A stretch of DNA of 45,094 nucleotides from Candidatus Avibacteroides avistercoris (GCA_020012075.1 DWUP01000026.1:1-45094); one strand, 5' to 3'. Counted from the stretch's first letter, positions 8,116-34,731 are shown. The notes: generated from the letters alone by a model not told the origin. Numbers and translations: made by a program.

Positions 8116-10112
8116 CGCTCTTTGATAAGTCCTTTCCTGTATGCTTCCAGCAGTTTGGCAAGGTCTGTTATCTGTTCCCTCAGGACTAATCCTATGTCAG
8201 TGTCTTTGACCATCATCCTCTGTGAGTTGAATTCGACGATGAAGGTCGTGGATTTGATGTCCTTGCCCTCAGATATCGCTTTCCATGTAGATTCAAACGG
8301 CTCGTGCTGCACGAGCTGGAGTCCATGTGAATGATAGACAAGCGTGTAGCCGGCAATCCCGGTCTCGGGCTGATAGGCTTTTGAGAAGCCGCCGTCTATC
8401 ACCAGCAGTTTGCCGTTGGCCTTGACCGGGCTCTCCCCCTTTATTGTCTTGACAGGCACATGGCCATTGATAATGTGGCGGTGCGTGCCCGTCACACCGA
8501 ATTCGTCCAAAATCATGTCGCAGACTGACTCTTCGTTGCGCAAAGTGTAATAGTTGCCCTTGGTTTCAACCGCCACTTCACGGTCTTCGATAAAATATCG
8601 CTCGAAAGTGGCCATTTTGTCCTTGTCAAACGGCGGGGCATCCTTGCCGCACCAAAGATACCATATATAGTCCAAGGCGAAGTCATAGTCATCCAATGTG
8701 CTGTTGCCATAATAGGCAAGCCTGACCAACGTGTCCACCTTGTCAAGCAGTGCGCGCCCCTTGTATCTGTCTCCGAGTATTTCCACCTCTTTGAAAGTCC
8801 CGTCGGCATTGAGTGGTATCGAAGCATGGAAGAGCAGATTGGAATTGCACACCTGATACATGCTGCCACGTTTAAAGAGGCATTTCATGTGCTTCCTCAG
8901 TTTTTCACTGTGTCTGAACGAATGTGCCAACTGCTCCACAAGCTCTTTTTCGTCAGTTGTCAAGGCAAATGGCTCGGCAGGGTCTACCGTAGGGAAATTA
9001 AGGTCTGCCATTTTATAGGCTTTGCCTCCTATCATGCACGTCCCGTCTGAATAGTCTATTTTGTCCAATATCAGTCTGTCGTCCATGCCAAACTCCGGAT
9101 GCCGCATTATGATTTCGGCTTCGAGCTTGAGTTGTATGACCGTGATGGCCTTGTGCATCTGCGCTATGAGCCGCAACGTCTTCTCGGACATATTGATTTC
9201 ACTCAACTCGACCTTCGGCACAAACCGCGAACAGTCATCATTGGCATAGTGCTCCATCGAATAGGTCGCAAGAGGCAGTAGATTGATGCCATATCCATCT
9301 TCGAGAGTAGACTGTGTGCCATAGCGCATGGCTATCCTGATGACGTTGGCAATGCAGGCTTTGTTGCCGGCCGCCGCACCTATCCACAGGATGTCATGAT
9401 TGCCCCATTGGATATCGACGTTGTGATAGTCGCAAAGTATGTCCATGATGTGATGTGCCCCCATACCACGGTCGAAGATGTCACCCACGATATGCAGCTG
9501 GTCTATGGTGAGCCGCTGGATGAGATTGCACATGGCGATGATGAAGTCATCGGCTCGCTGTGTCGAGATTATGGTGGAAATGATGACATTGATGTACGCC
9601 TGCTTGTTTGGCTCCACCGTAGACTCATGCATCAACTCTTGTATCGTATAAGAAAATTCCTTGGGGATTGCCTTGTGAACCTTTGAGCGGGTGTATTTCG
9701 ACGAGACATTCTGGCAGACTTTTATGAGCTGGTTGAGCGTGATGTTATACCAGTCCTCTATATCCGTCTCATGTGCCTTGACAAGTTCAAGTTTCTCCTC
9801 AGGATAATAGATGAGCGTGCACAAATCTTTCTTCTCAGACTCGCGCAGGGTATGCCCGAAGATTTCGTTCACTTTGCGCTTGATAGTCCCGGAGGCATTC
9901 TTCAGCACATGGCGGAACGCTTCATATTCTCCATGCACGTCTGTAAGGAAGTGCTCCGTGCCCTTAGGCAAATTGAGGATTGCCTCAAGATTGATTATTT
10001 CGGTACTTGCCGCTGCAATGTTGGGGAACGACCTTGACAGCAGCTGCAAATAGCGGAGGTCACTTTTGACCTGTTCATCGGTGTTTTCGATTATGAGCTT
10101 CGCCATAGGCAA
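8112..10112 (-). CDS. fbp: fructose-1,6-bisphosphatase class 3
   Basis: 666 aa. N-terminal LRYLQLLSRSFPNI...TEIINLEAILNLPKGTEHF..DVHGEYEAF and metallophosphatase motifs GDIFDRG and GNHD. Confidence 0.9.
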   Translation of the reverse strand: MPMAKLIIENTDEQVKSDLRYLQLLSRSFPNIAAASTEIINLEAILNLPKGTEHFLTDVHGEYEAFRHVLKNASGTIKRKVNEIFGHTLRESEKKDLCTLIYYPEEKLELVKAHETDIEDWYNITLNQLIKVCQNVSSKYTRSKVHKAIPKEFSYTIQELMHESTVEPNKQAYINVIISTIISTQRADDFIIAMCNLIQRLTIDQLHIVGDIFDRGMGAHHIMDILCDYHNVDIQWGNHDILWIGAAAGNKACIANVIRIAMRYGTQSTLEDGYGINLLPLATYSMEHYANDDCSRFVPKVELSEINMSEKTLRLIAQMHKAITVIQLKLEAEIIMRHPEFGMDDRLILDKIDYSDGTCMIGGKAYKMADLNFPTVDPAEPFALTTDEKELVEQLAHSFRHSEKLRKHMKCLFKRGSMYQVCNSNLLFHASIPLNADGTFKEVEILGDRYKGRALLDKVDTLVRLAYYGNSTLDDYDFALDYIWYLWCGKDAPPFDKDKMATFERYFIEDREVAVETKGNYYTLRNEESVCDMILDEFGVTGTHRHIINGHVPVKTIKGESPVKANGKLLVIDGGFSKAYQPETGIAGYTLVYHSHGLQLVQHEPFESTWKAISEGKDIKSTTFIVEFNSQRMMVKDTDIGLVLREQITDLAKLLEAYRKGLIKER

Positions 10113-12981: not shown

Positions 12982-12989
12982 CAAAAGTA
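12982..12989 (-). promoter_or_regulatory. putative -7 box TACTTTTG for the DUF4494-yggS-...-tamB gene string
   Basis: Minus-strand TAnnTTTG match, 27 nt upstream of the ATG at 12955. Confidence 0.4.
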
Positions 12990-13101: not shown

Positions 13102-13198
13102 GCAATCTCTATTTACCGACGGTGAATATATGTTCAACGTCGATAAATATATATTCAACGTCGTCAAACATATATTCAACGACGTCAAATAGAAATTA
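13102..13198 (+). repeat. 21-bp-phased palindromic-core element, copy A
   Basis: Four CGWCG cores centred at 13119, 13140, 13161 and 13182. Units are TATGTTCAACGTCGATAAATA / TATATTCAACGTCGTCAAACA / TATATTCAACGACGTCAAATA, preceded by CTCTATTTACCGACGGTGAATA. Termini are inverted. Confidence 0.9.
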
Positions 13199-13291
13199 TC
13201 CGCCGTGCCGGCGACAATCACACCGCACGCCTGACAGAGCCACGCACGGGACAGCGGCATGTCGCATGCAAGGCATCTGACGAAATATCGC

Positions 13292-14566: not shown

Positions 14567-14719
14567 ACCGCCATGACACTATAAAACATTTAAGATTATC
14601 GCACAATCAGACAATAAACTTTAAGTAGCCAGACCGTATAAATAAGGAAAAACGTTAAAAGTCGTTTAATTTAAGTTAAGCCTTAAAGCAGAGGTAAAGC
14701 AACTTAATATATTTGCTAT

Positions 14720-18196: not shown

Positions 18197-18361
18197 ATCT
18201 TTCAATCCTTTATCAGTTATGCAAGCCCGCAAGTGGAATTTGCGGCGTAAAATTAAGCATAATAAGCCTTGACCGGAGCATGACCGCTGCTAATATTGAT
18301 TGGACGGCACACGAGGCAAACATCCATGGCGCGGTGAACCATTATCGGCTGCACGGCACGA

Positions 18362-18457
18362 CATCTCTATATACCGACGGTATCTATATATTCAACGACG
18401 TTAAACATATATTCAACGTCGGTAAATATATATTCAACGACGGTAAATAGAGATTGC
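18362..18457 (+). repeat. 21-bp-phased palindromic-core element, copy B
   Basis: Cores centred at 18377, 18398, 18419 and 18440. Units are TATATTCAACGACGTTAAACA / TATATTCAACGTCGGTAAATA / TATATTCAACGACGGTAAATA. Termini are CATCTCTATATACCGACGG and CGACGGTAAATAGAGATTGC. Confidence 0.9.
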
Positions 18458-18556
18458 ACGGCATGATGATGCAATTTGCACTGCGTGCCATGTGGTTTCA
18501 GATGCCGAGCCATGCGAGGACAGCCCATGCCACATGCGGCCCGGGACGGTCTGCAA

Positions 18557-18596
18557 CGAAAAAGGGCAGGAAGCCTTGTCGGTCGGCCGCCTGCCC
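18557..18596 (-). terminator. intrinsic terminator after holA
   Basis: On the minus strand, GGGCAGG (18596-18590), a 19-nt loop, then CCTGCCC (18570-18564), followed by TTTTT. It lies 23 nt downstream of the holA stop. Confidence 0.6.
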
Positions 18597-26433: not shown

Positions 26434-26441
26434 CAAAGATA
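26434..26441 (-). promoter_or_regulatory. putative -7 box TATCTTTG for PPIase-M16-aroA
   Basis: Minus-strand TAnnTTTG match, 25 nt upstream of the ATG at 26409. This supports the trimmed start. Confidence 0.45.
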
Positions 26442-26560
26442 AGACATTCCGTCCTAAGGACAGAAACAATTCACAAGCGGTGAAACAGATGGGCCTGAAA
26501 TATTGGCCGCCCCGCACAATTTGCCATAGCTCCGCACCCGATCATCCGGGACATACGGCA

Positions 26561-26659
26561 CAATCTCTATACACCGACGATAGCTATATATTCACCGACG
26601 TTAAATATATATTCAACGTCGTTAAACATATATTCAACGACGGTAAATATAAATTATGC
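26561..26659 (+). repeat. 21-bp-phased palindromic-core element, copy C
   Basis: Cores centred at 26577, 26598, 26619 and 26640. Units are TATATTCACCGACGTTAAATA / TATATTCAACGTCGTTAAACA / TATATTCAACGACGGTAAATA, preceded by CTCTATACACCGACGATAGCTA. Confidence 0.9.
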
Positions 26660-26851
26660 ACGACCACGGGACAAATTGCCTGCCATGCCTGAGAATGTCA
26701 TCCTCACGCCCACCGGAAGCCGCATAAGCACGACAATGCCACAATATGCCGCTTTGTATAATAAATCGGGCATATTTGACAAGGCGAAATATTGTTAATC
26801 AAAATAAAAACACTATTATTGCGGACATGTTGATTATACGTATACGATGTT

Positions 26852-34569: not shown

Positions 34570-34643
34570 TGACTCCTACAGGATTCAAACCTGTAACCTT
34601 CTGATCCGTAGTCAGATGCTCTATTCAGTTGAGCTAAGGAGCC
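34570..34643 (-). tRNA. tRNA-Arg (anticodon ACG)
   Basis: The 74-nt minus-strand sequence GGCTCCTTAGCTCAACTGAATAGAGCATCTGACTACGGATCAGAAGGTTACAGGTTTGAATCCTGTAGGAGTCA folds as a cloverleaf: 7-bp acceptor stem, anticodon loop CTACGGA, T-loop TTTGAAT. CCA is not encoded. Confidence 0.9.
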
Positions 34644-34657
34644 GTCATGACTGGTAG

Positions 34658-34731
34658 TGATCCCTACAGGATTCAAACCTGTAACCTTCTGATCCGTAGT
34701 CAGATGCTCTATTCAGTTAAGCTAAGGGACC
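34658..34731 (-). tRNA. tRNA-Arg (anticodon ACG), tandem second copy
   Basis: GGTCCCTTAGCTTAACTGAATAGAGCATCTGACTACGGATCAGAAGGTTACAGGTTTGAATCCTGTAGGGATCA. The core is identical to the neighbouring copy, with compensatory acceptor-stem differences. Confidence 0.9.

Follow-up and report, generated by a model that had tools for sequence, protein, structure and literature searches.

A dispersed 94-bp repeat of four helically phased palindromes in Candidatus Avibacteroides avistercoris

A 45,094-nucleotide stretch of DNA from Candidatus Avibacteroides avistercoris (GCA_020012075.1 DWUP01000026.1:1-45094), here called the window, carries three intergenic loci that each consist of one 94-bp near-palindromic block of four 21-bp units. 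We propose, with moderate confidence, that this element is a non-autonomous dispersed repeat resembling MITEs (miniature inverted-repeat transposable elements) and REPINs, the paired form of repetitive extragenic palindromes (REPs), and that its phased palindromes are putative sites for a dimeric protein. The element is apparently undescribed, and its kind is apparently widespread among the small dispersed repeats of Bacteroidales. A first-pass annotation of the window had offered three roles, namely an operator array for a dimeric or LytTR-type regulator, loading sites for a nucleoid or segregation protein, and a MITE/REP-like repeat. The last of these fits best, although the element conforms in full to neither the REP nor the classical MITE definition.

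Small dispersed repeats such as REPs, bacterial interspersed mosaic elements (BIMEs) and MITEs shape transcription, mRNA stability, recombination and the quality of genome assemblies. To our knowledge, hardly any have been charted in Bacteroidales, although this order dominates the gut. Our literature searches returned a single related Bacteroidales case, the BrickBuilt repeat of Porphyromonas gingivalis, which is compared with the element below.

Architecture and dispersal of the element

The three copies, each 94 bp long and read on the plus strand, lie at 13104-13197 (copy A; cores centred at 13119, 13140, 13161 and 13182), 18362-18455 (copy B; 18377, 18398, 18419 and 18440) and 26562-26655 (copy C; 26577, 26598, 26619 and 26640). 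The first-pass annotation had described a repeat of about 100 bp; the repeat is real, and the exact conserved block is 94 bp at the corrected coordinates just given. Its placement of the CGWCG centres of three arrays, with every interval exactly 21 bp, is confirmed by reading of the sequence, by a script and by Tandem Repeats Finder (TRF). According to the script, pairs of CGWCG at a distance of 21 bp occur at only these three loci anywhere in the window, four in a row at each, and the 21-bp arrays called by TRF span 13125-13191, 18375-18449 and 26585-26655. The unit pattern TATATTCAACGWCGKTAAA, with up to three mismatches allowed, has 17 matches in the window compared with 0.03 expected from shuffled sequence, which is far beyond chance.

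Each unit comprises a 15-bp palindrome with two 7-nt half-sites around a single central base, TTCAACG-W-CGTTAAA, followed by the spacer YATATA; the consensus can also be written TTCAACG-W-CGTTRAA with a TATATA spacer. The near-perfect palindrome with a centre that flips between A and T, as originally noted, was found in all 12 units of the window: the CG.CG core is never changed and the centre base is always A or T. The first and last units are altered to give the element inverted ends (left AATCTCTATTTACCG..., right ...CGGTAAATAGAGATT; in copy A, AATCTCTATTT... and ...AAATAGAAATT), and therefore the whole element is an inverted repeat about its midpoint. The inverted match claimed between the left end of copy A (13102-13121) and the reverse complement of the right end of copy B (18438-18457) is correct, with 19 of 20 bases shared. 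Within each element, the self-inverted arms extend over 46-54 nt and are 74-79% complementary.

The units also differ from one another in ways that the copies have in common. All three copies have ACCGACG in unit 1, T at the centre of unit 3 and A at that of unit 4. When the three whole intergenic regions are aligned, a high-identity block appears with unalignable DNA on both sides, and the sharp end of homology at the 94-bp boundaries supports the view of the element as a mobile block. Besides two tandem tRNA genes, the element is the sole real dispersed repeat in the window. Open reading frames (ORFs) that cross it are short spurious calls only.

A loose three-core pattern was used to scan metagenome contigs, and 15 contigs were returned. 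Eight of these represent five distinct loci of a sister family, designated family X, on contigs whose nearest named protein relatives are metagenome-assembled genomes (MAGs) of Bacteroidaceae (83%) and Prevotella (72-73%). The aspartyl-tRNA synthetase (AspRS) of the source species is at most 85% identical to that of Parabacteroides and Tannerellaceae MAGs among the representatives in GTDB. Over the full 94 bp, family X can be aligned to the window family with no gaps and has its four cores at identical positions, and its five loci are unrelated. The half-site is TTTYWCG and the ends are ATTCTTTATTT and AAATAAAGTTT (the right end is also given as AAATAAAGAAT). All five loci share unit signatures of their own, such as a CTTATA spacer after unit 2. 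The 94-bp layout is thus kept across at least two Bacteroidales families.

Because unit-specific signatures are common to the copies within each family, the whole block appears to have been dispersed, as opposed to arrays being amplified locally. The earlier preference for a repeat family over independently evolved operators thus holds up, given the sharp boundaries, the shared unit features and the five loci of family X, and the 21-bp phasing is kept in every further copy found. The element also has polarity, because a profile built from eight copies gives forward matches a score that is 15-20 bits higher than that of reverse ones. For copy A, the nhmmer profile gives 75 bits forward and 63.5 bits in reverse.

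The contexts of family X were established from ORF calls made in this analysis and checked against Pfam. One copy abuts the cobD stop codon and faces an opposite-strand ORF of 149 amino acids without a Pfam match, and another follows an asparaginase gene and faces an opposite-strand ORF of 251 amino acids, also without a match. Further copies follow an OTCase-like gene, lie downstream of a BNR/CBM9 gene, or lie between divergent HU-HIG and ECF-sigma genes, ∼36 bp from a start codon (L118). Among these five loci, L117 and L127 have the copy between apparently convergent genes, with one partner ORF in each pair lacking a Pfam match. Four of the five loci are just downstream of a gene 3′ end. Neither the polarity of the family X copies nor their better-folding strand shows a consistent relation to gene direction. 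The element thus occupies unrelated intergenic sites, gene 3′ ends included.

In the proposed mechanism, the whole 94-bp block would be the unit that is copied to new intergenic sites. The palindromes would be candidate sites at which a dimeric protein binds and assembles along a single DNA face. Such sites are suggested by the exact two-turn phasing, by the central base changing only to its complement, and by the fixed count of four units. The most plausible binder would be the enzyme, or a host factor, responsible for copying or maintaining the element. Once a copy has inserted, the number of units may drift through slippage or unequal exchange. Neighbouring genes would be affected only secondarily, whether through curvature, cruciform formation or stray promoter or terminator activity. 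If the element is a purely selfish repeat, it would still account for the long intergenic regions and the assembly gaps that recur in these genomes.

Strain variation, known repeats and difficulties

The source species is common in the gut metagenome assemblies of ENA. Identity to the window at the three loci is ∼98% across ∼20 strain contigs, none of which lacks the element at locus A. The number of units differs among strains and can be 3, 4 or 5: a clean 21-bp deletion leaves contig L102 with three units at B, and a clean 21-bp duplication gives L103 five at C. An apparent deletion of element B in L107 was rejected on finding that a run of Ns, an assembly gap, accounts for it. In L105 (2453-3120, corresponding to ∼26500-26850 of the window), the C-terminal end of an IS30-family transposase lies ∼100 bp from the ATG of the peptidyl-prolyl isomerase (PPIase) gene, and other genes stand in place of element C, DUF3276 and uvrD. 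This contig represents either a rearrangement associated with an insertion sequence (IS) beside the element or an assembly chimera. Within the species, 9 of 260 columns are polymorphic in the element and 49 of 977 in the intergenic flanks (p = 0.33), so purifying selection is not significantly stronger inside the element than around it.

Several of the features expected of a MITE are present. The element is 94 bp long, is non-coding, has terminal inverted repeats, and is found in three copies in the window and at five family X loci. Presence/absence polymorphism with an intact empty site was not found, and this is one of a number of observations that weigh against the proposal of a mobile repeat. 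No empty site occurs among the usable strain contigs (∼20 at A, 9 at B and 9 at C). Neither a transposase with matching ends nor a RAYT-like gene is encoded in the 64 kb examined, which comprise the window plus, from contigs of the same species, 10 kb on its right side and 8.5 kb on its left. The copy number is known from the window stretch only, as the source species is outside the genome and metagenome collections searched. Conservation between copies is stronger in the array than in any flank, and selection could be the reason instead of an element boundary. All three copies, in one orientation, are 107-121 bp from −7 promoter boxes on the minus strand, an arrangement that would suit a regulatory array. 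Finally, no consistent target-site duplication accompanies the copies in the window or those of family X, and nothing like the direct repeat of copy B described next is found beside copy C or the family X copies.

Copy B is bordered by an 8-9-bp direct repeat, GCACGGCA (TGCACGGCA), at 18350-18358 and 18455-18463, with an offset of 4 bp in that the left repeat is parted from the element by CGAC. The corresponding flanks of copy A are CCGCATGC and CCGCCGTGC. As a separate observation, each of the three window copies has motifs resembling GCACGGC in its flanks. The repeat at B and these motifs could represent a target preference or a relic target-site duplication.

Among published systems, the nearest analogue is BrickBuilt, a MITE of P. 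gingivalis with a 23-nt unit present in 1 to 22.8 copies, a leader and a tail, and the IS5-type terminal inverted repeat GAGACCTTTGCA (Klein et al. 2015, PMC4596501). Both are always-intergenic dispersed elements of Bacteroidales that are limited to one lineage, and both have a head-to-tail minisatellite body with a unit of about two helical turns, small inverted-repeat ends and a variable repeat number. However, the defining features of BrickBuilt are missing from the element described here, which has a fixed length of 94 bp, four 21-bp palindromic units and no homology to the leader or tail. The IS5-type repeat is absent from the elements; one match with two mismatches occurs elsewhere in the window, as expected by chance.

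The element also resembles REPs, BIMEs and REPINs, which are mobilised by RAYT transposases, in being a short extragenic palindrome with lineage-specific sequences. Those repeats are often located at gene 3′ ends or between convergent genes, lack target-site duplications and form mosaic clusters, and the element has comparable locations and no consistent target-site duplication. REPs have stems of 8-9 bp (range 5-13), loops of 4-5 nt (up to a range of 2-20) and an unpaired terminal GTAG or CGTC tag, and they cluster as inverted head-to-head dimers with a negligible share of head-to-tail arrangements (PMC3733652). In contrast, the units described here are strictly head-to-tail at 21 bp with a loop of 1 nt, and CGWCG occupies the middle of the palindrome, with no tag at its end.

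A third likeness is to ERIC/IRU, Correia (CREE) and RUP elements, which are non-coding, intergenic, imperfect palindromes over their whole length of ∼100-150 bp and whose hairpin strength depends on orientation through G·U pairs. These elements typically have TA or other short target duplications and lack phased internal tandem repeats, whereas the element in the window has phased tandem units and no consistent target duplication was found beside it.

BLAST searches of plasmid and phage collections with the element returned no match. An exact two-unit pattern had no match among IMG/VR viral contigs, nor among genome and JGI metagenome contigs, a set that does not include the source species. 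AspRS-centred loci from 80 GTDB species, which served as background for the array statistics given below, neither share synteny with the window nor carry the element.

Alternative explanations

Gene identities around the three elements were assigned by a Pfam scan of 20 ORFs (10118-34281). Element A lies between a minus-strand DUF4494-YggS-AspT-FBPase operon and a plus-strand operon for a MacB-like protein, a histidine kinase (HK) and an OmpR-type response regulator (RR). Element B is between a class I/II aminotransferase gene and the 3′ end of holA, both on the minus strand, and element C is between a minus-strand cyclophilin-M16-EPSP-AspRS operon and plus-strand DUF3276. The adjoining genes have unrelated housekeeping functions. 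An exact match to the Bacteroidetes box TAnnTTTG is found 20-35 bp from the start codons of the DUF4494, MacB and PPIase genes.

The best-surviving alternative, which we regard as possible but unlikely, is a phased operator or upstream-activating array. In this explanation, a cooperative dimeric transcription factor would bind on one helical face and co-regulate the adjacent genes, the targets being the minus-strand DUF4494 operon, aminotransferase gene and PPIase operon or the divergent MacB-HK-RR operon and DUF3276. The exact 21-bp phasing and the 7-1-7 palindromes are as expected for such an array, as is the stronger conservation of the array than of the flanks between copies. Tandem operators with a period of ∼21 bp include the ARG boxes of ArgR, lambdoid OR/OL, OmpR F1-F3 and LytTR repeats, with 2-4 sites per array. 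Their two-turn spacing, like that of the element, places successive dimers on one DNA face. Element A is upstream of a two-component operon, and another Bacteroidales array (L038, described below) resembles a genuine site for an enhancer-binding protein.

The positions of the −7 boxes are also in favour. The box of the DUF4494 operon (TACTTTTG, 12982-12989, minus strand) is 115 bp from the proximal edge of element A, and that of the PPIase gene (TATCTTTG, 26434-26441, minus strand) is 121 bp from element C. The −7-like box of the aminotransferase gene (TAATTTTA, 18248-18255, minus strand) is 107 bp from element B; as read from the sequence, it has one mismatch and is ∼50 bp upstream of the gene. 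This similarity of spacing is suggestive, yet it is only weakly improbable given the room between promoters. The shared orientation pointed out in the first-pass annotation is true of the three copies, although three copies would agree in orientation by chance in 1 of 4 cases and family X follows no orientation rule relative to genes.

Other results count against promoter control. Known tandem operators occupy fixed promoter positions in a defined regulon, next to or under a known regulator, whereas this element is block-copied with inverted termini to unrelated intergenic sites that include gene 3′ ends. The family X copies that directly follow stop codons, lie between apparently convergent genes, or are situated close to a start codon vary so much in position that there is no conserved promoter geometry. 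The putative target genes are functionally unrelated and have proximal TAnnTTTG boxes of their own. In L105, a metagenome-assembled contig, the PPIase operon lacks element C. The strain-variable number of units and the lack of excess purifying selection within the species are likewise unexpected for an operator. For these reasons, the earlier suggestion of a promoter operator is not supported.

Orthologous upstream regions in relatives also argue against an operator, as they either lack the element or hold an array of different sequence. One relative (L091, DUF4494 81% identical) has a different 21-bp array of 3.8 copies, with the unit TTTTAGSCTAAAAATATATAA, upstream of DUF4494 and no array upstream of its aminotransferase gene. 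A relative at 78% identity retains the same divergent MacB/DUF4494 pair, where the 81-bp spacer is free of arrays, and relatives at 77% and 88% have no array in the available upstream DNA. Where the element is missing, the spacers of relatives cannot be aligned with those of the window. Two narrower candidates were considered and rejected. An operator for the local OmpR-type RR is inconsistent with half-sites that are inverted and not direct, and with relatives that keep the HK-RR pair without a homologous array. On reading of the sequence, a sigma-54 promoter on the downstream side of the elements was dismissed, because the GG-to-GC spacing is 10 and a spacing of 12 is required.

A structured RNA is a decidedly less probable explanation. 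Here the minus-strand transcript would form a ∼45-bp hairpin that serves as an mRNA stabiliser or processing site, a terminator or a small RNA. In all three copies, the minus strand is predicted to fold at −44 to −47 kcal/mol (z −5.5 to −8.2) and the plus strand at −20 to −35 kcal/mol. The minus strand folds better because systematic C/A mismatches become G·U pairs. The same strand asymmetry is found in most family X copies, and the location of most family X loci just past a gene 3′ end would be suitable for such an RNA. However, the better-folding strand is not consistently tied to the direction of flanking genes in family X or in other arrays. The G·U asymmetry stems from one or two unit positions and so reflects a small number of independent events. 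At ±3, 6 of the 12 window units have lost pairing, and a paired change is found there only in A1 and B1.

Moreover, holA has an intrinsic terminator of its own at 18559-18596 on the minus strand (GGGCAGG...CCTGCCC followed by TTTTT), between holA and element B. Because this terminator precedes it, element B is probably outside the holA 3′ UTR. One T of the terminator T run varies among strains. A preference for periods of 21 and 42 bp is not expected of RNA hairpins. At gathering thresholds, Rfam recognises only two tRNAs in the window and leaves the elements unmatched, in agreement with the view that the element is not a known RNA motif. With permissive settings, the elements match eukaryotic miRNA-hairpin models at 20-33 bits, below gathering thresholds of 48-117, and these matches reflect only a long AU-rich hairpin.

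An ArgR-type (ARG box) or LytTR-type operator is very improbable, even though both classically have a 21-bp period. ArgR operators are pairs of 18-bp ARG boxes that are 3 bp apart and overlap the promoters of arginine genes. The ARG-box pattern TGAATWWWWATTCA, in a register centred on the spacer, has 10 matches in the window compared with 2.6 expected; six of the 10 fall in the arrays, with 1-2 mismatches, and the ARG-box geometry of 18 + 3 also gives 21 bp. However, the neighbouring genes are not arginine genes, and neither family X nor the second family of the same species (see below) matches the ARG box. LytTR operators consist of 9-bp direct repeats, [TA][AC][CA]GTTN[AG][TG], that are 12 bp apart. 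On reading of the sequence, GACGTTAAA resembles this 9-mer at seven of nine positions. The two-repeat consensus at up to two mismatches gives 6 window matches compared with 6.0 expected, none of them in the elements, and the elements are >100 bp from the −7 boxes. Neither an ArgR nor a LytTR gene is among the 20 scanned ORFs, where the RR is OmpR-type, and positions after stop codons make promoter control implausible. The LytTR role put forward in the first-pass annotation is therefore not upheld. The sequence AACGTTAAA-N12-TAAGTTAAG (14651-14680, plus strand), which lies between the MacB and HK genes and shortly before the latter, matches the LytTR direct-repeat consensus with one mismatch, and LytTR-consensus matches of this type occur in the window at a chance-level number.

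The least credible explanation is that neutral minisatellites, without dispersal or function, arose by slippage at each locus: although the number of units is polymorphic and the element is about as polymorphic as its flanks, three loci have the identical 94-bp block, unit order, unit-specific variants and inverted termini, and five more loci in another family of organisms have the same length and layout, which an independent origin cannot produce. The core is also reminiscent of the Mpi invertase site ARACGTWCGT. This candidate was rejected on architecture, as two inverted site copies flank an invertible segment in the Mpi system.

Related arrays and flanking features

Other phased arrays were sought with TRF (at least 2.8 copies) in ∼1.4 Mb of Bacteroidales loci (L011-L099). 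The periods found were 21 (n = 12), 22 (n = 5), 23 (n = 2) and 41-44 (n = 4), and no arrays were present at periods of 16-17, 19-20 or 25-40. Because these periods are at multiples of the helical repeat, a constraint at the level of DNA, such as protein binding or curvature, is favoured over one at the level of RNA. Most intergenic arrays have about four palindrome-bearing units, and their sequences are all different. They are located in divergent, tandem and apparently convergent settings, and two 21-bp arrays (L045 and L051) are inside long ORFs. Arrays at L025, L091, L111 and L112 are inside longer inverted-repeat elements, whereas others are not. The loose metagenome scan also recovered further families with CGWCG cores, designated Y and Z.

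The class of phased arrays in Bacteroidales is likely heterogeneous. At L038 (19644-19710), three AAGATGTACATCTT palindromes with a period of ∼23 bp lie between genes for a sigma-54 enhancer-binding RR and a TolC-like protein, and a TGGCAC-N5-TTGA motif, TGGCACGGCATTTGA, is ∼215 bp downstream of the array. Judged by its sequence, this array is probably an ordinary upstream activating site for an enhancer-binding protein.

A second 21-bp family is present in the source species, ∼10 kb to the right of the window (its position is also given as ∼1 kb past the right end). Its unit is TATATTCGCAAGTTGCGAA, with the palindrome TTCGCAA-S-TTGCGAA and a TATATA spacer. The array is upstream of a MatE gene and has 3.9 units in one strain (L112:11901-11991) and 5.8 in another (L113:12248-12370). 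It is bounded by inverted arms of 46 nt that end in GGATGCAAAC and GTTTGCATCC. On the left side, the 8.5 kb that adjoin the window consist mostly of the nuo operon and contain no array. In total, ∼64 kb of the source species hold four arrays of two sequence families, and therefore one sequence-specific regulator cannot explain both families.

The relative at locus L111, whose aminotransferase is 78% identical, has four arrays in 21 kb. A repeat at this locus is present in two copies (549-902 and 8970-9323) in opposite genomic orientations, with 96% identity over 293 nt and homology over ∼345 bp. This repeat is a long palindrome, with the ends GGGGACAAAT and ATTTGTCCCC, around a 21-bp array of four TATATTCAAAAGTTTTGTTTA units. 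It has subterminal CTCGCCGAGAAAA motifs and is followed by a separate, itself repeated GAGACGCATAATATGCGTCTC hairpin module, which results in a BIME-like mosaic. Comparison of the relatives, L111 included, thus indicates that arrays turn over between species and ride on recently duplicated repeats.

A broader proposal, which we offer only tentatively, is that Bacteroidales have a general and as yet undescribed class of helically phased palindrome arrays together with a co-evolving family of dimeric DNA-binding proteins, in a system that would be REPIN-RAYT-like or nucleoid-organising and confined to this order. Under this doubtful scenario, an array would comprise about four units with a period of 21-22 bp (or 42 bp), and its half-sites would be characteristic of the lineage and family. 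Several families would coexist per genome, and some arrays, such as the 94-bp element, would be packaged at a fixed length. The strict 94-bp, four-unit design and the sharp period peak at 21/22/42 bp point to a specific protein partner and a shared, unnamed mechanism. If such a partner is found, it could be a new repeat-maintenance enzyme or nucleoid factor, and the elements would be useful as strain markers given that their unit number varies among strains.

The only flank stretch that lines up across the window copies is a short right-hand ACAAWTTGC...GCCTGA. In the three-copy alignment, weakly conserved right-flank motifs on the plus strand are found at 13213-13239 for copy A (GACAATCACACCGCACGCCTGACAGAG), at 18470-18495 for copy B (TGCAATTTGCACTGCGTGCCATGTGG) and at 26670-26697 for copy C (GACAAATTGCCTGCCATGCCTGAGAATG). 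The motif of copy A is possibly an eroded extension of the element. That of copy B is similar to the arm end GGATGCAAAC of the second family, and that of copy C is similar to the L111 repeat end GGGGACAAATTCC. Flank-to-flank alignments of the window copies, inverted or direct, do not score above shuffled controls, so the patchy homology of GC-rich flanks reported in the first-pass annotation is weak. Palindromy does not extend significantly into the flanks of the three window copies, whereas it does so in the second family and in the elements of L111, L091 and L025.

Some minor observations concern sequences near arrays and elsewhere in the window. Flank motifs of the type GTTTTTCCGG / CGGAAAGTT / TTTTTGCTCCGGGCA are found beside arrays of unrelated units in several genera (L025, L091, L077 and L122), and they are often themselves repeated with a spacing of ∼22-24 bp. 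The Y1_Tnp domain, that of RAYT transposases, has no match in the 20 scanned ORFs, nor among the precomputed Pfam labels of the flanking contigs. The two tandem tRNA genes of the window, at 34570-34643 and 34658-34731 on the minus strand, are ∼93% identical to each other.

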